IMG/VR virus record: IMGVR_UViG_2563367003_000003
DNA length: 8,520 nucleotides
DNA from: a virus
Taxonomy: Duplodnaviria; Heunggongvirae; Uroviricota; Caudoviricetes
Direction: 5' to 3' (one strand)
In this document: positions 1 to 7,440 of the stretch, one piece after another
Position numbering within the stretch: the stretch's first letter is position 1
Layout of the letters: each line of letters opens with the position of its first letter
Program-made: the position numbers and the translations under genes
Notes under the pieces: generated by a model
Databases searched by the model: none
Told to the model about the DNA's origin: nothing
What the model saw: the letters and a program-made list of their open reading frames with translations, nothing else

Positions 1-1053
1 ATGACGTTACCACTAAGAGATTACTATCCTATTGAGCGCGCGGCAAAGTTATTAGACTGCGATATTGATGATCTTATTCATTGGGCTGTGACAGGCTGCA
101 TTCGTATTTGTATAAAAATTGAATCTGCATATGGAGTATTAAATATCCCAGATGAAAAAGATGTGGTTAATTTCGATTGTCTGCGTAAGTTTCTGGATTC
201 AGAACCATGTAAATCACGGTTATCTGACCTTGATGCCATTTCAGAAAGGGCGGCAGAACACCATGGTTTTAATTATATAAAAACCAAGTCGAGAATTATA
301 TTTGATTCAATGTGCGAATCTCTAAGTCATTCATATGTAGCGCCCAAATTTGGTGACATAGCAATTGATACTGCATTTGCTTTGTTAAATTATTATAACA
401 GGGGGTTATATTATGGGGAAAATTATCACATATATAGTGTATATCGAATAGCAACGGATGAAAGAGCTGTGGCAGTTGTACCACCAGTATTTAAAGGTAT
501 TCAAGAAAAATACCATAAGTATTTTGTTGAAATAGGCGGTATTTTCGCTTTGGGGGGAAGTTTTTTTGCCAACTATGATTTTAATAAGAAGTTTAAAGCC
601 AACCGAATAATTAATAGCAATATTATAATTGCTTCTGACGTTGATATACATATAGGAGTAATTGTTACTGAGGATGTTTCTTTTGATATTGGTGATTTAT
701 ATATCTTAAAGAGTGATTTTTTAAAAATACAAAATGCTACAAGCTCCAATAGCGAGTTAAGAAAAGATTATGTTAATCCATTGGCAGACACTTTATATTT
801 GTGTGCGGGTAACAATATATTAAGCTCTGAGGATGGAGAGAAAGATATATGCACCAATAAAAACAATATAGAACGATTATCTAAAACAATGAAGGATTTT
901 TTTCGTGCGATGCTTGTTATTCATTATAAAGAACTCGAAAACAATCCGGTAAAACTTGCTGATATATTGACCGCGGAAGCAAAAGAGGCAGGACTCAATA
1001 TGCGCTTTGATAAAAGTACTATATCAAGATGGATTAAGGCATCATCTCAGTAA
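1..1053 (+). CDS. Hypothetical protein, 350 aa, AT-rich cargo-like gene of unknown function; weak HTH-like segments at both termini
   Basis: Long uninterrupted ORF from the track. By eye it is clearly more AT-rich (mid-30s % GC in sampled 60-nt stretches) than the primase and integrase genes (about 50%). N-terminus (YPIERAAKLLDCDIDDLIHW) and C-terminus (KLADILTAEAKEAGLNMRFDKSTISRWIK) look like helix-turn-helix segments. No catalytic motif recognised. ATG at position 1, so the true start could lie upstream of the window. Confidence 0.6.
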   Translation: MTLPLRDYYPIERAAKLLDCDIDDLIHWAVTGCIRICIKIESAYGVLNIPDEKDVVNFDCLRKFLDSEPCKSRLSDLDAISERAAEHHGFNYIKTKSRIIFDSMCESLSHSYVAPKFGDIAIDTAFALLNYYNRGLYYGENYHIYSVYRIATDERAVAVVPPVFKGIQEKYHKYFVEIGGIFALGGSFFANYDFNKKFKANRIINSNIIIASDVDIHIGVIVTEDVSFDIGDLYILKSDFLKIQNATSSNSELRKDYVNPLADTLYLCAGNNILSSEDGEKDICTNKNNIERLSKTMKDFFRAMLVIHYKELENNPVKLADILTAEAKEAGLNMRFDKSTISRWIKASSQ

Positions 1054-1116
1054 GACCAGCAAGCATCTTAATAAGACCTTTAATACTTGCTTTCAAAACT
1101 CCGTAAAACAAAAATC

Positions 1117-1145
1117 TCCCCCGAAAGTTCAGAAACATAGGGGGA
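1117..1145 (+). promoter_or_regulatory. Possible RBS-sequestering stem-loop in the 5' leader of the alpA-like gene
   Basis: TCCCCC (1117-1122) is the reverse complement of GGGGGA (1140-1145), which is the Shine-Dalgarno for the ATG at 1149. Stem is only 6 bp with a 17-nt loop. Confidence 0.25.
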
Positions 1146-1148
1146 AAT

Positions 1149-1469
1149 ATGACTCAATCCGCATTCATTCCACCAACTCCAGAACAGCGCCGCACCATAC
1201 TCGCCGAGTATGGTTTTGACTGCGAAGAACGCATCAGGGAAGAGAAGTGTAAAAAAATGACCACGCTTTCACGCTCCCGGCGCTGGGAACTGGAGAAGAT
1301 CGGTGCTTTTCCTCCCCGTCACTCTTTGGGGCGTTGCTCATGTACCTGGCTGTTAAGTGATGTTTTGTGGTGGCTACGTAATCCGCCAGTTATTGCCAAA
1401 GTGAATAACCCATACGAAAACGCCAAAAAGAAAAGGGAGAGGGAATCCGGTAGCGCCAGAGTTGAATAA
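1149..1469 (+). CDS. alpA: AlpA/Vis-family prophage regulatory protein (HTH excisionase-like), 106 aa
   Basis: Core MTTLSRSRRWELEKIGAFPPRHSLG...W...DVLWWL follows the AlpA pattern (G.SR...W...G.FP...G...W...D..W) as I recall it from E. coli CP4-57 AlpA. Strong SD GGGGGA 3 nt upstream of the ATG. Has a ~30-aa N-terminal extension relative to minimal AlpA proteins. Confidence 0.7.
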   Translation: MTQSAFIPPTPEQRRTILAEYGFDCEERIREEKCKKMTTLSRSRRWELEKIGAFPPRHSLGRCSCTWLLSDVLWWLRNPPVIAKVNNPYENAKKKRERESGSARVE

Positions 1470-1570
1470 GCCCGGGCGGCTTATTGCAGCCCATCGCTTG
1501 GCGGCAAAACTTACTGATGTGAACACGTTGCTACACGTGAGGGGGAGAGGTCGGGCGCTGACAGCAGAGC

Positions 1571-1601
1571 AAAAAAAAGAAGCTCGCTAAAGCCAGCGAG
1601 C
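1571..1601 (-). terminator. Rho-independent terminator oriented for minus-strand (leftward) transcription
   Basis: Read on the + strand: A8 tract (1571-1578), then GCTCGCT (1582-1588), loop AAAGCC, AGCGAGC (1595-1601). On the minus strand this is a 7-bp GC-rich hairpin followed by a U8 run. There is no U-tract on the + strand side. Confidence 0.55.
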
Positions 1602-1725
1602 CAACCAGTCAAGGATGTGCATTTAGTGCACCTGAAATCAACAATAAGAAACAATAGGCAGAAATGATTATGGCTTTTTTACTCTTAAAAATCAATTACT
1701 CAGCGCAATCGCGCAAAAATAATTT

Positions 1726-1765
1726 GCAATATTGCTTGACTCGCTTTTTTGTCATGGCGTATCGT
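1726..1765 (+). promoter_or_regulatory. Candidate sigma70 promoter for the small-gene/primase operon, with an operator-like palindrome abutting the -35
   Basis: TTGACT (1736-1741), 18-nt spacer, TATCGT (1760-1765). Perfect 10-bp palindrome GCAATATTGC (1726-1735) directly 5' of the -35; further GCAAT half-sites at 1704-1708. The upstream part of track ORF 1664-2191 has no RBS and is better read as leader. Confidence 0.35.
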
Positions 1766-2017
1766 TTGCCCGCACCTCATAAAACAGGTGCCGGGTTTGA
1801 CAGCCTGAACAATCAAGCGGGTAGCCGCTATATTTCCGTAATGCGGTTTTTTTGTGCCCGTAATTCCACCCTACCCCGTATTATGGCGGGGCGTAATGGG
1901 GGAGCCTTTGCGCTCGCTGGTTCCTTGATTGCCAGTCTGTCAACCCTGTTACGTCCCGCCACCATGTTTGACAGCGTGCTGGCGAGACTCCGTAAACTTA
2001 ATCAAGGAGCCGCCAAA

Positions 2018-2191
2018 ATGGCTATATCAACACGCCCTGATTTTATCTGGCGCTTTATGCAGTGCCACGGTAAAAATATCCGCCTTCATACCGTTACCGC
2101 CGCCAGTGAGCGCGAAGCGCGCGCCCTGCTTCCGGCATCCCGTCTGGTCTTTGTTGCCCGTATTCGTGTCCGGGAGGCGTGCCATGTTTAA
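2018..2191 (+). CDS. Icd/Ash-like small protein, 57 aa, first gene of the overlapping small-gene operon
   Basis: Internal ATG at 2018 in frame with track ORF 1664-2191, preceded by a consensus SD AAGGAG (2005-2010, 7-nt spacing). Segment FIWRF...HTVTAASEREARALLPASRLVFVARIRV resembles the Ash/Icd-like family motif as I remember it; needs HMM confirmation. Confidence 0.5.
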   Translation: MAISTRPDFIWRFMQCHGKNIRLHTVTAASEREARALLPASRLVFVARIRVREACHV

Positions 2192-2366
2192 GATCCTTAT
2201 TACCCTGATTAACTACCAGAACGGCGACGTTCGCCAGATGATTCATTCCTGGGAATATCCGACTTATGACGATGCATGGCGTGATGCCTGTCGTATGGCA
2301 TATTCCCGCAATGACAAACAGGGGCGATTAACTCACAAATGCGCAGTAAAAATCATGGAGGGGTAA
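2184..2366 (+). CDS. Hypothetical small protein, 60 aa
   Basis: ATG at 2184 in frame with track ORF 1929-2366, preceded by SD GGGAGG (2172-2177). Overlaps the stop of the upstream gene by 8 nt, suggesting translational coupling. The longer 145-aa reading lacks an RBS. Confidence 0.5.
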   Translation: MFKILITLINYQNGDVRQMIHSWEYPTYDDAWRDACRMAYSRNDKQGRLTHKCAVKIMEG

Positions 2367-2368
2367 CG

Positions 2369-2557
2369 ATGTACGAGATTCATATTAAATTGCGTAATGT
2401 GGTAACAGGAGAGGAAGAAAACTTCCACACGATACGTAAATATAAATCAAAAGGAAAAGCGGCAAGGGACGCTATCAGGTATACGGAAGAAATTGCGCCG
2501 AAATATCAATTGCCAGAAGAAGAGCTCACAGCATCAGTGGTAAAGGTGAAGAAATGA
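2369..2557 (+). CDS. Hypothetical small protein, 62 aa
   Basis: ATG at 2369 (MYEIHIKL...) in frame with track ORF 2339-2557, preceded by SD GGAGGGG with about 6-nt spacing and starting 2 nt after the upstream stop. Lys/Glu-rich. Confidence 0.5.
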   Translation: MYEIHIKLRNVVTGEEENFHTIRKYKSKGKAARDAIRYTEEIAPKYQLPEEELTASVVKVKK

Positions 2558-2772
2558 AAACCCGTTCAGCATCCCGTAAATATAGCCGTAATACTGAAAA
2601 ACGTTTCTTTGTGCTGGGTTATGCCGTTAATAAACGCGGGTTAACCAAACATGCACATGCAACGGTATACGGAGCGGAGCCAGGCGAAGCCATACGCCGC
2701 GCAGCCGAAGGACTGGAAAAGCTGGGAATGACGCATTTCAGAGCGTTGAAGGTGACGCAGCTTTCCGCCTGA
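2554..2772 (+). CDS. Hypothetical small basic protein, 72 aa
   Basis: Start ATG overlaps the upstream stop as ATGA (2554-2557), indicating translational coupling. Basic N-terminus (RSASRKYSRNTEKR). No family recognised. Confidence 0.5.
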   Translation: MKTRSASRKYSRNTEKRFFVLGYAVNKRGLTKHAHATVYGAEPGEAIRRAAEGLEKLGMTHFRALKVTQLSA

Positions 2773-2840
2773 TTCCCGAATTATCCACTGATAACTGAAT
2801 TAAATTTATATTTCGACCTTAACGGGTCGGGGGAGTTTTT

Positions 2841-3146
2841 ATGTCTGAAAATCAGAATTACGCAGATATTTTAGATAAAGAATACATTGGATTTTTTACA
2901 GAGAGTGCAAAAGAAGATCTCGCAGATGTAATTAACCTCATCGATCTTATATCCATCATGTTTGGTGAGAGGGATTGCGGAGCATCTTCAGAAATCACAA
3001 ACAAAGCAATTGTATCTCTGTTTAATATTATTTATCGGGAATTAGAAACAATAAAATCTGGTATGCATCTTTCTGGCGGTATTTTTTCATGGCACAAAGC
3101 TGAAGCCGCAGGGATTACCAAGAAACAAGAAGTAACGAGTAATTAA
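2841..3146 (+). CDS. Hypothetical protein, 101 aa, AT-rich moron-like gene directly upstream of the primase
   Basis: SD GGGGGAG (2829-2835) 5 nt before the ATG. Lower GC than its neighbours. Bracketed by a 5-bp hairpin (CGACC/GGTCG, 2814-2829) and a strong 3' hairpin. No recognisable motif. Confidence 0.55.
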   Translation: MSENQNYADILDKEYIGFFTESAKEDLADVINLIDLISIMFGERDCGASSEITNKAIVSLFNIIYRELETIKSGMHLSGGIFSWHKAEAAGITKKQEVTSN

Positions 3147-3150
3147 TAAA

Positions 3151-3185
3151 ACCCCACTGCAAAAGGTGCAGTGGGGTGGAGTTTT
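3151..3185 (+). terminator. Strong stem-loop (11-bp stem) with a short U-run, between the 101-aa gene and the primase start; possible terminator or attenuator
   Basis: ACCCCACTGCA (3151-3161), loop AAAGG, TGCAGTGGGGT (3167-3177), perfect complement. Followed by GGAG then TTTT (3182-3185), so the U-tract is 4 nt from the stem and not canonical. The hairpin contains the GTG at 3166 that the ORF track uses as the primase start. Confidence 0.4.
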
Positions 3186-3189
3186 ATAT

Positions 3190-5865
3190 ATGAAATCTGA
3201 CATCAGAAAAGAGATTATTAACCGTCTTATCCGTGATTACAACTTCAAAGAAGAAAATAACTACCTCCGGTATGGTGTTTGTCCGCAATGTGGAAAGAAA
3301 GAGTTGTTTACCAGCCTTGAAAGGCCGTACATCGTACACTGCGGGCGTGAAAATAAATGCGGTACAGACCTGCTGACTAAAGAACTTTACCCGGATGTGT
3401 TTTCATCATGGTCAGATCGCTATATCAGTACGAAAGATGAACCATACGCAGCGGCGGCAGCTTATCTCCTGGAGGCACGCAATATTGCTACAGAGCCACT
3501 GAAGGGGGTATTTACCCAGGAGCGATACAAAGACAAGGAAAGCGGCGAACAGGCCGCTACTGTGCGTTTTACGCTGGCTGACGACGTGTGGTGGGAGCGC
3601 ATCATAGACCGACCGGAACGCTTCGAACGGAAGGCGAATTTTTCCGGCAGCTACAAGGGGTTGTGGTGGGCTTATCCGGGAGCAGATTTAAGCAAGGCCA
3701 AAGAAATCTGGATTTGTGAGGGTATCTTTGATGCCATCAGCCTTAACCAGAATGGCATTGCGGCCGTTTCTGTCATGTCTGCCGTGAGCTACCCTGATAA
3801 GGCACTGGAAGAGCTGGCGAAGCTGTGCGGGGATAATCCCCGTCCGGTTATCGTGTGGGCGCTGGATAACGGGCGTGCAGGTGAGCGTTACGCGAAAAAA
3901 CATGCAGAACGCAGCGCCGAAGACGGCTGGAGAACGGCAGCGGCGTTGCCAGGTAAAAACAACAATAAACGCGACTGGAATGATTTACACATCGCCGGAA
4001 AGCTGCGTGGCCATGATGTGAAAAGATACCGTTATTACGGTGATTTATTGCTGGCGAAATCTCCAAGAGATAAGGCACTAATAATGTTTTCCTTTCGTGA
4101 GCGGAAGGAATTTCATTTTACTTTTGATAACCGTGTTTTCTGGTTCAAGCTGGACATTGAGCGCCATATGAAGGCTGTTGAGCGTGTCATTAATGAGCGA
4201 AATGTTGATGAGGATGAAGCGCGCAAAATTGCACTTAAGGAATCTGGTGCAGTAAAAGAAATCGCAAACTGTAACCCAGCGCCGCTTTATTACATTCGAA
4301 ATAATGACACGGATGAAGCATGGTATTACTTCCGTGTTACGTTCCCGGATGGTGCTACGGTGAAAAACACCTTTACATCAGGACAATTAACATCCTCATC
4401 TGAATTTAAAAAACGCCTGTTACACGTGGCAAAAGGCGGTATTTATACCGGAACGACTACGCAGCTTGACGCATTAATAAAAAATGACCTTCCCGCAATA
4501 AAAGAGGTTATTGGTCAGGATTTTATCGGATACAACAAGGCGATTGGGGCATGGCTGTTTAATGATATTGCTGTTTACAAGGGAAAAACTTATGAAATCA
4601 ATGACGAGGATTATTTTGAAATTGATGGCATAAACGCAAAACCATTAAGCGAAAAACCCACATTACAGATTAACTACAAAAAACCGGATGAATTTACAGC
4701 GTCCTGGGTGGAAGATCTCTGGCTGGCTTTTGGTGAAAAGGGAATTATTACCCTGGCTTTCTGGTTGGGCTCCCTGTTCAGCGAACAAATCCGGGATAAA
4801 GAAGAATCCTTCCCTTTCCTTGAAGTCACCGGAGAGCCCGGAACGGGCAAATCAACATTGATTGATTTTTGCTGGCGGCTGTGCGGTCGTGACAACTACG
4901 AAGGAGTTGATCCAACCAAAGGATCAGAGGCGGGCTGGAAGCGCACCTTTGGACAGGTCGCCGGATTGCCTGTTGTTCTGATTGAAGCAGACCGGGGAGA
5001 CAATGCGCAAAAAAGAGGTGCGTTTGACTTCGATAACCTGAAAAGCCTCTATAACGGTGGCGGTATCGGTGTTCGTGGGGTTAAGGCCAACAATAACAAC
5101 ACCTATGACCCGGATTTTAAGGGCGCTATCGTGATTGCGCAGAATGCGCGGGTAAATGCCTCGCCGGCAATTATTGAGCGCCTGATACGCATATACACCG
5201 ATAAAAAACGCCATTCACCTGATACCCGACTGGCGGCGAGACGGCTGGAACTCTACCCCGTCGAGAAGGTATCGGGGTTTATTCACCGGGCGGTAAGTCA
5301 GGAACGGGCGATTATGCAAACGTTCCTGGAAGTATCGCCCGCTGAAACGGAACGCCTTTGCGGATGCGAAAATATTCGCCATCCCCGTATTGCCAAAAAT
5401 CACGCGCAACTTATCGCGCTGGTCAGGGCGCTGAAATGCGTTATCGATATCCCGGATGAATGGCTTGATGCCACATGTCTGGAACTGGAACAAATGGCAA
5501 CGGCGCAGGTTAAAGCGGCGGCGGCTGACTTGCCAGAAGTGATGGAGTTCTGGGAGGCGTTCGACTTCCTGGACGGCATAACAAAATACGGTGTAAACCA
5601 TTACGGCAAGGGATGCCGCGAAGGGATTGCTATCAGTATTCCGCAACTGGCACAGGCTGCCGCCATTCACCGCGTGGAGATCCGAACCGATCGCGAAATG
5701 ATTGAGTTGCTCGGAGCTGGGCGTTCCCGACCGTTGACAGGCCGTAAAACCATTCGTAGTGAGGTGTCCAGACAGGCAAACGCCGGAAAAGGAGTAGCCG
5801 AAGCCAGAGAGCCGGAAGTACTGAAATGCCGGATATTCAGTTACAAGGAGGTCACCGAAAAATGA
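3190..5865 (+). CDS. Bifunctional DNA primase/helicase, P4 alpha-like replication protein (zinc ribbon + TOPRIM-type primase + P-loop NTPase)
   Basis: Track ORF 3166-5865 begins with GTG inside the hairpin; the first ATG at 3190 has SD GGAG (3178-3181). Motifs: zinc ribbon CPQCG...HCGRENKCG (about nt 3279-3363), TOPRIM-like EGIFDAISL (about 3715-3744) with ALDNGRAG (about 3859-3882), Walker A GEPGTGKST (about 4832-4858), Walker B-like VVLIEAD (about 4970-4990). Architecture matches P4-family primase/helicases. Confidence 0.85.
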   Translation: MKSDIRKEIINRLIRDYNFKEENNYLRYGVCPQCGKKELFTSLERPYIVHCGRENKCGTDLLTKELYPDVFSSWSDRYISTKDEPYAAAAAYLLEARNIATEPLKGVFTQERYKDKESGEQAATVRFTLADDVWWERIIDRPERFERKANFSGSYKGLWWAYPGADLSKAKEIWICEGIFDAISLNQNGIAAVSVMSAVSYPDKALEELAKLCGDNPRPVIVWALDNGRAGERYAKKHAERSAEDGWRTAAALPGKNNNKRDWNDLHIAGKLRGHDVKRYRYYGDLLLAKSPRDKALIMFSFRERKEFHFTFDNRVFWFKLDIERHMKAVERVINERNVDEDEARKIALKESGAVKEIANCNPAPLYYIRNNDTDEAWYYFRVTFPDGATVKNTFTSGQLTSSSEFKKRLLHVAKGGIYTGTTTQLDALIKNDLPAIKEVIGQDFIGYNKAIGAWLFNDIAVYKGKTYEINDEDYFEIDGINAKPLSEKPTLQINYKKPDEFTASWVEDLWLAFGEKGIITLAFWLGSLFSEQIRDKEESFPFLEVTGEPGTGKSTLIDFCWRLCGRDNYEGVDPTKGSEAGWKRTFGQVAGLPVVLIEADRGDNAQKRGAFDFDNLKSLYNGGGIGVRGVKANNNNTYDPDFKGAIVIAQNARVNASPAIIERLIRIYTDKKRHSPDTRLAARRLELYPVEKVSGFIHRAVSQERAIMQTFLEVSPAETERLCGCENIRHPRIAKNHAQLIALVRALKCVIDIPDEWLDATCLELEQMATAQVKAAAADLPEVMEFWEAFDFLDGITKYGVNHYGKGCREGIAISIPQLAQAAAIHRVEIRTDREMIELLGAGRSRPLTGRKTIRSEVSRQANAGKGVAEAREPEVLKCRIFSYKEVTEK

Positions 5866-6872
5866 CGATAAAGAAGTTGGTTAACGGTAAGTTTGCTGTG
5901 GACGTGCGGCCTGCAGGAGCAGAAGGAAAAAGATTCAGGCGGCGATTTGATACTCGTGGTGAAGCAGTGGCGTATGAACGCCATGTTCTGATGCACTACC
6001 ACAACAAAGAGTGGGTCGAAAAGCCCATTGAACGTAAAGCGTTAAGCGATCTTCTGGAATTATGGTGGGCGTATCATGGCAAGAATCATCGTTATGGAGC
6101 GATGACGCGGGTAAGAATTGAAGCTGTTCTTTGTGATATGCGCGAACTTGGGATAAACAGAAGCGATCATTTAACCCGGAAAAATATTATCAGATATCGA
6201 CTTAAATTAATGAATCGTGGAATTAAACAGTCAACAGTAAATCGCTATTGTGCCATGATGAGCGGTTTCTTTGAAAAGCTGATTGATGCTGAAGAGTTTG
6301 CGGGTAATAACCCGTTTCGCGAGATACGTAAGTTAAACATTAATCAGCCAGAAATGGCTTATCTTGCACATGATGATATTTCCAGGCTAACCGCGCTTTT
6401 ATCTGGCGATAATCTTAAGGCTGTATTGTTGTGTCTGGCTACAGGTGGGCGCTGGGGTGAGATTGCCAATATTAAAGGTGAGCACATAATTGGCGGAAAG
6501 GTTATTTTTATGAAGACAAAGAACGGCTCAAGGCGGGTCGTTCCAATCGCTAAAGATCTTGAATCACTGGTCAAAGTAAAGGCGACCGGAAGATTAATGA
6601 AACCTAATTATGCAACTGTCAGAAGTGCAATAAGGACTGTGCGGCCTGATTTACCCGTCGGTCAGTCTGTGCATGTTTTACGGCATACCTTTGCCACTCA
6701 CTTTATGATTAATGGTGGAAACATCATCACATTGCAGAAAATACTAGGACACAGCACTATTCAGCAGACGATGACTTACGCGCATTTTGCACCGGATTAC
6801 CTGGCAGATGCCATGAGATTTAACCCGGTAGCCAACATAGTGATCACCGAAGAAAAAGAGCCAGCAGAGTAA
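5862..6872 (+). CDS. int: Tyrosine recombinase, P2-Int-family integrase, 336 aa
   Basis: N-terminus MTIKKLVNGKFAVDVRPAGAEGKRFRRRFDTRGEAVAYE and the catalytic region (GGRWGEIANIK; HVLRHTFATHFMINGGNIITLQKILGH; TMTYAHFAPDYL with the tyrosine nucleophile) closely parallel P2 Int as I recall it. Near-consensus SD AAGGAGGT (5845-5852). The ATG at 5862 overlaps the primase TGA (5863-5865) as ATGA. The track start at 5826 is an upstream in-frame extension. Confidence 0.9.
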   Translation: MTIKKLVNGKFAVDVRPAGAEGKRFRRRFDTRGEAVAYERHVLMHYHNKEWVEKPIERKALSDLLELWWAYHGKNHRYGAMTRVRIEAVLCDMRELGINRSDHLTRKNIIRYRLKLMNRGIKQSTVNRYCAMMSGFFEKLIDAEEFAGNNPFREIRKLNINQPEMAYLAHDDISRLTALLSGDNLKAVLLCLATGGRWGEIANIKGEHIIGGKVIFMKTKNGSRRVVPIAKDLESLVKVKATGRLMKPNYATVRSAIRTVRPDLPVGQSVHVLRHTFATHFMINGGNIITLQKILGHSTIQQTMTYAHFAPDYLADAMRFNPVANIVITEEKEPAE

Positions 6873-7120: not shown

Positions 7121-7440
7121 GGGGGGGGATGCGCAAAGCGGTTACAACGGTTACAAATTTAAAATCACTTATTTTTGCATTATATATCAATACATTATAA
7201 CTGGTCGGATGAGTTACAAAAGCGGTTACAACGCGGTTACATGTAACCGTTTTGTTAGGTTACAGGCGGTTACAGGTTAAGTTTTTAATTGATTGATAAT
7301 AAAGTGCTTTTTGAAACCTGTAACCGTTGTAACCGCAGTGTAACCGCAAAGCGGTTACAAACAATATCCATTAAAATCATGCTGTTAAGTGGTGTTTTTG
7401 ACTGTTGTAACCGTTGTAACCGCTTTGCGCACCCCCCACC
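7121..7440. repeat. Iteron array of GGTTACA/TGTAACC heptamers around an AT-rich core, bounded by 36-bp near-perfect inverted repeats; candidate replication origin and/or att arm-site region
   Basis: Forward GGTTACA at 7140, 7149, 7224, 7235, 7258, 7268, 7353 (plus partial GTTACA at 7213); reverse TGTAACC at 7242, 7319, 7328, 7339, 7406, 7415. Left repeat 7121-7156 (GGGGGGGGATGCGCAAAGCGGTTACAACGGTTACAA) matches the reverse complement of 7405-7440 at 34 of 36 positions, with the inner 26 perfect. Internal palindromes GGTTACATGTAACC (7235-7248) and TGTAACCGCAAAGCGGTTACA (7339-7359). AT-rich segments at 7157-7210 and 7275-7318. Confidence 0.8.

Follow-up and report, generated by a model that had tools for sequence, protein, structure and literature searches.

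A hypervariable small gene fixed directly upstream of the primase in P2-dependent satellites, a tentative analogue of P4 epsilon

Is the small AT-rich gene that stands directly upstream of the primase in this element a passenger, or does it belong there, and on what does its product act? The gene lies in a stretch of 8,520 nucleotides (IMG/VR record IMGVR_UViG_2563367003_000003), below called the window, and encodes a protein of 101 aa, listed in RefSeq as the hypothetical protein WP_016242748.1. A full-text literature search for this accession found no paper. A sequence-only reading had described the gene as AT-rich, moron-like and inserted in front of the primase, with its own strong Shine-Dalgarno sequence (SD), a hairpin on each side and no known motif, and had suggested a possible analogue of P4 epsilon or an independent small effector. 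The descriptive part of this reading was borne out. With a GC content of 0.346 and a GC3 of 0.275 the gene is set apart from the primase (0.489 and 0.501) and from the upstream genes (GC 0.40-0.51), the SD is a good one, hairpins are present on both sides, and nothing but the second hairpin separates the stop codon from the SD of the primase. The features are given in Table 1; the position directly upstream of the primase is called the slot, and the gene in it the slot gene.

Table 1. Features of the window around the slot gene, and loci with an assigned gene in the slot
Feature	Position or locus	Strand	Remarks
isrK-like RNA	1772-1853	+	operon head; Rfam 52.2 bits, above gathering score
C4 antisense RNA	1879-1966	+	operon head; Rfam 74.6 bits, above gathering score
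5' stem-loop	2811-2832	+	3' arm overlaps first Gs of SD
SD of the 101-aa ORF, GGGGGAG	2829-2835	+	5 nt 5' of ATG; read from sequence
101-aa ORF, ATG start	2841-3146	+	last gene before primase
Hypervariable core, codons 33-58	2937-3014	+	nucleotide diversity peak, up to 0.45
Strong GC-rich stem-loop	3151-3177	.	between stop codon of 101-aa gene and primase SD
Primase SD (GGAG) and ATG (3190)	3178-3192	+	directly 3' of stem-loop
Toprim primase-helicase, phrog_1139, 891 aa	3190-5865	+	downstream operon gene; profile matches and annotation
Slot-gene family directly upstream of primase	L021, L022, L023, L051		
PF25738 'Derepression' (epsilon family) directly upstream of primase	L020, L024, L028		

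The window is 100% identical to a chromosome segment in E. coli N50 and two other strains. It is part of a satellite island of about 12.7 kb, which is flanked by gcd and hpt in the E. coli chromosome. The island carries, in this order, an integrase, an AT-rich 350-aa ORF, an AlpA-like regulator, an 'Icd-like' ORF, three small ORFs, the 101-aa gene, the 891-aa Toprim primase, a second tyrosine recombinase, an Ogr/Delta zinc finger, a 236-aa ORF, a homologue of the P2-family major capsid protein and MazEF. The two RNAs at the head of the operon (1772-1966) mark an immunity control of the type known from P1 (c4-icd-ant) and P4 (CI RNA). As in P1 and P7, a C4 antisense RNA and an Icd-like ORF are found at the head. 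In contrast to these phages the satellite operon has no Ant homologue; small orphan ORFs, the slot gene and the primase follow downstream. The primase is of a type shared with P2-like phages, e.g. ESSI2_ev239 and RSY1, and among the matches listed P4 was absent. From its gene content and the C4 RNA the element is therefore a P2-dependent satellite and not a canonical P4. Both RNAs are located inside the ORF annotated as 'Icd-like' (1664-2191), and the Icd model matches just the C-terminal ~45 residues of this ORF. Hence, its 5' part may consist of RNA genes and not of coding sequence.

The terms 'inserted' and moron-like, in contrast, did not withstand the comparison with related elements. A distant-mode search with positions 2339-4000 of the window as query yielded 71 E. 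coli genomes; overall, about 70 of the 5,426 genomes covered carry the element, and draft assemblies add many more. At least 80% of the query was covered in 66 of them, and in all 66, among the matches listed, the slot is filled by an annotated small gene. Every one of the 14 elements examined individually has a member of the same family, the slot-gene family, at this place. The presence and absence among syntenic elements that marks a moron was thus not found, a small gene being always in the slot, and pseudogenisation in relatives was not seen either, with the ORF intact in 11 of 11 E. coli loci analysed. The family comprises 67 clusters at 90% identity, nearly all of them full length; E. 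coli and Salmonella are their only sources. Among 1.84 billion representative proteins a profile search gave just 18 members, and a second profile search added members from Klebsiella oxytoca and Serratia. Homologues with 22-30% identity hold the same pre-primase position in E. coli, K. oxytoca, Serratia, Salmonella, Kluyvera, Izhakiella and Klebsiella indica, so that the position is kept in five genera other than Escherichia. The family also precedes a second type of primase (Zn_Ribbon_Prim and DUF927), which is 21% identical to that of the window. In a scan of IMG/VR it occurred on satellite-sized contigs of ~6-15 kb only and in no full-size phages; tblastn of the 101-aa protein against 50,697 phage records found nothing.

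Low GC content as a mark of recent foreign insertion was considered and rejected. It is common to the whole family, with 0.33-0.45 for the slot genes and 0.48-0.56 for the adjacent primases, and the epsilon cassettes found in the same slot are low in GC likewise. The gene shares with phage morons the deviant base composition and a terminator-like hairpin at the 3' side. Unlike morons it is not sporadic, and its position is conserved across genera. A crude consensus scan of positions 2770-2840 revealed no sigma-70-like promoter of its own. In this satellite lineage and its distant relatives the slot gene is a constant component, not a sporadic moron.

The two flanking hairpins have different histories. 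The 5' stem-loop comprises 9 pairs including G-U (-12 kcal/mol, z = -1.9) and is modest when taken alone. It belongs to a conserved cis element of the cassette with the consensus (T/C)GRCC-N5-6-GGTC(A/G)GGGRG-N4-6-ATG, of which the core GRCC-N5-6-GGTC and the SD are present throughout the family, including members with 22-30% protein identity. Within the stem, pairs change in a compensating manner (CG to UA, AU to GU or GC), and 85% of the alignment cells are paired, a share that falls to 58% or less if the partners are slid. The presence of four G-U pairs speaks for an RNA structure and not for a DNA palindrome. Since the stem overlaps the SD, it may damp translation of the slot gene. The 3' stem-loop is strong, with 11 pairs, -21.3 kcal/mol and z = -4.3, and none of 200 shuffled sequences folds as well; it is terminator-like on both strands. 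A hairpin is present at this position in all relatives, built from three unrelated stems (CCCCACTGCA, CCCCCTGTA and GCGCCG). It is common to versions with and without epsilon and hence part of the backbone. Because its U-tract is broken by the SD of the primase, it may serve as an attenuator or a stabiliser of RNA ends, not as a full terminator. Between this hairpin and the primase SD the run of Gs varies from ~4 to 10 when the window (3151-3177) is compared with the elements L003 and L019; such a tract could be prone to slippage and in this way tune translation of the primase.

The absence of a known motif was confirmed for the encoded protein. It has no match in Pfam, PHROGs and NCBIfam and none in PADLOC at E ≤ 0.01. 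A Pfam scan of 21 diverse family members at E ≤ 10 gave isolated chance matches only, and the best hit of a profile search of PDB sequences with the family had E = 0.35. The family is unannotated in all databases searched. No DNA-binding motif is recognisable in the 101-aa protein. It is acidic, with a pI of 4.66 and a net charge of about -7 (pI 4.6-6.1 in the family). Conserved blocks are found at residues 14-32 (Y-x-GFFTE, L-x-DVIN) and 59-84 (S-L-x-N-I-x-YREL, SGMH-x-SGGIFSW), and 25 residues are invariant across 50 family sequences. Residues 7-13 and 33-58 form variable patches with a mean column entropy of ~1.5 bits, compared with 0.3-0.5 in the conserved blocks. Modelling by AF2 with a broadened alignment reached a moderate mean pLDDT of 68.6. 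In this model two long helices (21-42 and 54-74) form a hairpin, both conserved motifs pack at its base, and the variable residues 33-58 make up the distal half and the loop. The product is accordingly predicted to be a small acidic all-helical protein. Fold searches with the model returned generic helical hairpins only and nothing informative among known anti-defence proteins.

The diversity of the slot gene is exceptional within its surroundings. Among 11 E. coli elements nucleotide diversity amounts to 0.22-0.45 exactly over this gene and to 0.03-0.1 in the flanks, and it drops back at the start of the primase. Both dN and dS are raised ~10-20-fold over the flank values; for the window and element L012, dN and dS are 0.11 and 0.29 in the slot gene and 0.003 and 0.016 in the primase. 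An omega of ~0.3 together with the increase of both rates indicates a functional gene with old alleles. Pervasive positive selection was rejected, as omega is ~0.3 even in the variable core, apart from trivially close pairs. Mosaic junctions are located inside the gene: compared with L002, near-identity holds for the first 6 codons and for the last ~35, and the core has dS >2. Slot gene and primase can differ in either direction. Between L003 and L015 dN is 0.68 for the slot gene and 0.008 for the whole primase; between L014 and L015 it is 0.017 for the slot gene and 0.139 for the C-terminus of the primase. Near-identical primases stand beside slot-gene alleles just 37% identical. The allele class of the slot gene is independent of the primase allele. 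The pattern is that of old functional allele classes shuffled by recombination among young backbones, not of rapid evolution in place.

Within the operon as analysed, from the Icd-like gene to the primase, polymorphism is highest in the slot gene, which for this reason probably lies at a conflict interface. A comparable pattern is described for the helper phages in one study (PMC1904268): the repressors of P2, P2 Hy dis and W-phi share 43-63% identity and the structural genes >96%. The repressors thus diverge deeply within near-identical phages, and the slot gene mirrors this within near-identical satellites.

A relation to epsilon emerges from the occupants of the slot. Species-representative genomes were scanned with the primase alignment, which gave 74 loci, and their ORFs were searched with profiles of the slot-gene family and of epsilon. 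In enterobacterial satellite loci either a slot-family gene or a PF25738 'Derepression' gene stands directly upstream of the primase (Table 1); in Enterobacter hormaechei and Yersinia pekkanenii, too, it is taken by PF25738 genes. The clearest case is the pair L021 (Kluyvera) and L020, which are 93-97% identical over 292-4542 and 4954-9549. The sole piece that cannot be aligned is the slot cassette, with a slot-family gene (121 aa) in L021 and a PF25738 gene (85 aa, 74 bits) in L020; the differing segment extends from just past the stop codon of the upstream gene to the stop codon of the slot gene. The flanks of L005 and L094 are 90-94% identical, and the segment before the primase is swapped between the two. 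A tandem of a 94-aa slot-family member and, after it, an epsilon (PF25738) gene occurs in Serratia (L010) and Salmonella (L094). Slot gene and epsilon may hence serve different purposes and not be strictly equivalent. No epsilon-family ORF was detected in the whole island around the window (L001) at E ≤ 1. At more distant primase-bearing loci, which are probably phages, TraR-like, Dam or DUF5347 genes are found in the slot. A Pantoea locus has DUF5375 (Cnr) there, with a primase match that is partial (query residues 172-326) and 27% identical. The record of L020 (QAKE01000006.1) is labelled 'Bacillota bacterium MAG' in spite of its 93-97% identity to a Kluyvera satellite; the contig has probably been mis-binned in the public database.

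Slot gene and P4 epsilon have several traits in common. Both encode proteins of ~90-100 aa without a DNA-binding motif, both belong to an early operon and both stand upstream of the primase. PF25738 genes are found in the identical slot of sister elements and are swapped for slot-family genes in the pair L021/L020. Furthermore, the operon of the slot gene has a C4 RNA on the same strand, and the epsilon operon of P4 carries a CI-type RNA, the counterpart of C4 RNA. Operons with such an RNA in P1 (c4-icd-ant) and P4 (CI RNA-epsilon) contain anti-repressor genes. For satellite transfer, epsilon-like genes are of importance when it starts from helper lysogens and not after superinfection by the helper. 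In contrast, the proteins differ in pI (4.7 for the slot protein, 9.25 for P4 epsilon), and the slot protein has conserved motifs of its own (GFFTE, GGIFSW) and can stand in tandem with epsilon. Homology was not detected. The PF25738 HMM, which scores P4 epsilon itself with 170 bits, matched neither the window protein at E ≤ 0.1 nor any of 21 diverse family members at E ≤ 10, and hhalign assigned a probability of 1% to a relation with P4 epsilon (A2) and of 0.06% to one with the epsilon pair (A3). A local likeness to P4 epsilon (IHREL..SGLH..IFSY and IYREL..SGMH..IFSW) was dismissed as chance: it is gone when profiles are compared, and the epsilon family conserves IFSY only. By hhalign, P4 ORF106 (Cnr), P4 ORF151, Tum of phage 186 and a P4-like 94-aa ORF from Pantoea were also without relationship to the slot family. 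Of the earlier suggestion of an epsilon analogue, the shared slot and the cassette swap thus speak in its favour; the missing homology and the tandem arrangement speak against it.

With a probability of about 0.4, the slot gene could be a non-homologous analogue of P4 epsilon, i.e. a helper-directed anti-repressor whose specificity is set by the variable tip of a helical hairpin. After the satellite operon is switched on, a resident P2-like helper prophage would have its immunity repressor, or alternatively another early helper protein, bound by the slot protein, and the satellite would gain access to helper late functions. The conserved base, made of the GFFTE and GGIFSW motifs and the proximal halves of the helices, would supply the fold, and which helper variant is recognised would depend on the hypervariable parts, the N-terminal patch (residues 7-13) and the hairpin tip (residues 33-58). 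The deep polymorphism of helper repressors might allow old allele classes to persist, and these would be shifted among backbones through recombination at the hairpins and the conserved ends of the gene. What the comparisons show is where the gene stands, how it is conserved, how its alleles are distributed, its exchange against epsilon and its independence of the primase alleles; the binding partner and the derepression activity are what we infer. The positional link to epsilon is indirect, a case of guilt by association, the slot of more distant loci being filled by TraR-like, Dam or DUF5347 genes. The proposal fits the C4-RNA operon, the swap with epsilon, an island that has no other epsilon, alleles that vary independently of the primase, the likeness to the diversity of helper repressors, the acidity seen across the family and its restriction to satellite-sized elements. 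The tandem cases and the missing homology keep our confidence at the value given, and the moderate AF2 model with its generic fold matches and the probable mis-binning of L020 also count against it.

A regulatory role at the primase itself is improbable. The slot gene would then be a replication accessory or copy-number regulator acting on the primase-helicase, a positional analogue of P4 Cnr (ORF106, DUF5375 / PF17345). This is suggested by its constant place directly 5' of the primase, with just a hairpin before the primase SD, and by P4 ORF106, also of ~100 aa, in the same position immediately upstream of the satellite primase gene alpha. However, the slot protein is not matched by the DUF5375 HMM, and its hhalign probability against P4 ORF106 is 0.4%. 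Slot alleles do not co-vary with the primase, as seen from the 37%-identical alleles beside near-identical primases, and the primases that follow the family are of two very different types; both points make the primase an unlikely candidate for the variable partner. Moreover, it is epsilon and not a Cnr-like gene that a near-identical backbone substitutes. The idea that the ORF is non-functional or decaying, and that only the flanking RNA hairpins matter by attenuating the operon, is hardly credible. The hairpins are indeed conserved in their own right and the protein has neither family nor fold assigned, but all 11 E. coli loci have an intact ORF, nearly all 67 clusters hold it at full length, omega is ~0.3, the 25 invariant residues persist across 50 sequences, and the motifs are retained at 22% identity in other genera.

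Another polymorphic target is a more serious, though still rather unlikely, explanation. The slot protein would then inhibit a host or prophage defence, or a protein other than the repressor of the helper or of a competitor phage. In favour of such a task are the small size and acidity of the protein, the hypervariable surface that it bears over a conserved scaffold, its old alleles exchanged by recombination, the AT-richness seen in many accessory genes, and the two elements in which slot gene and epsilon occur together. Against it, neither PADLOC nor PHROGs gave a match, anti-defence proteins gave no informative structural match, and the gene is fixed in a regulated early operon, outside the variable cargo region at the integrase side. 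Even with a different target, the slot gene would likely be placed at a conflict interface.

An epsilon-like anti-repressor function of the slot gene would have consequences for the range of helpers. Many P4-type elements are without a recognisable epsilon (PMC8628076), and the slot-gene family is a concrete candidate for the helper-range determinant of P2-dependent satellites lacking it. Anti-repressor function in satellites is already known; a non-homologous family with a hypervariable tip, interchangeable with epsilon, would be new. If true, a new anti-repressor fold would be added, the variable tip would be a readable specificity code for predicting satellite-helper pairings from genomes, and the locus would be an example of balancing selection on the satellite-helper interface. 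A wider proposal, which we regard as doubtful, is that the family forms a second, non-homologous class of satellite anti-repressors with hypervariable tips matched to P2-like immunity classes, possibly those inaccessible to epsilon, and that satellites change or widen their helper range by swapping or stacking cassettes at one hairpin-bounded slot.

Some further observations concern the remainder of the island. In the primase, the C-terminal third (5058-5865, residues ~620-891) falls into two deep allele classes with dN ~0.14 and dS ~0.6, in contrast to nearly uniform N-terminal two-thirds. The two classes are distributed without regard to the alleles of the 101-aa gene and may track origin specificity. 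The second tyrosine recombinase (Int_N and Phage_integrase; 5862-6872, + strand) overlaps the stop codon of the primase. The pair of primase and integrase is kept in elements of E. coli, Klebsiella and Salmonella whose island end is already occupied by an integrase.

The 350-aa ORF adjoining the island integrase (1-1053, + strand; GC 0.34, GC3 0.26) is without a Pfam, PHROG, PADLOC or NCBIfam match. At its place the sister elements L012, L013 and L014 have a different protein or none. It looks like variable cargo at the position where satellites carry defence genes. Just right of the window (L001 17686-20303) the 236-aa protein and the 423-aa homologue of the P2-family major capsid protein are encoded, followed by MazEF. 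The capsid homologue matches TIGR01551 with 133 bits, which is below the curated cut-off, and P4 Sid and Psu are missing from the annotated products. The satellite may bring its own capsid protein. Finally, a gap with few ORFs, located between the second integrase and Ogr, contains a dense field of ~14 copies of CGGTTACA(A) in both orientations (7121-7440), including 36-nt inverted arms that are 94% complementary. This field is probably the satellite origin bound by the primase.
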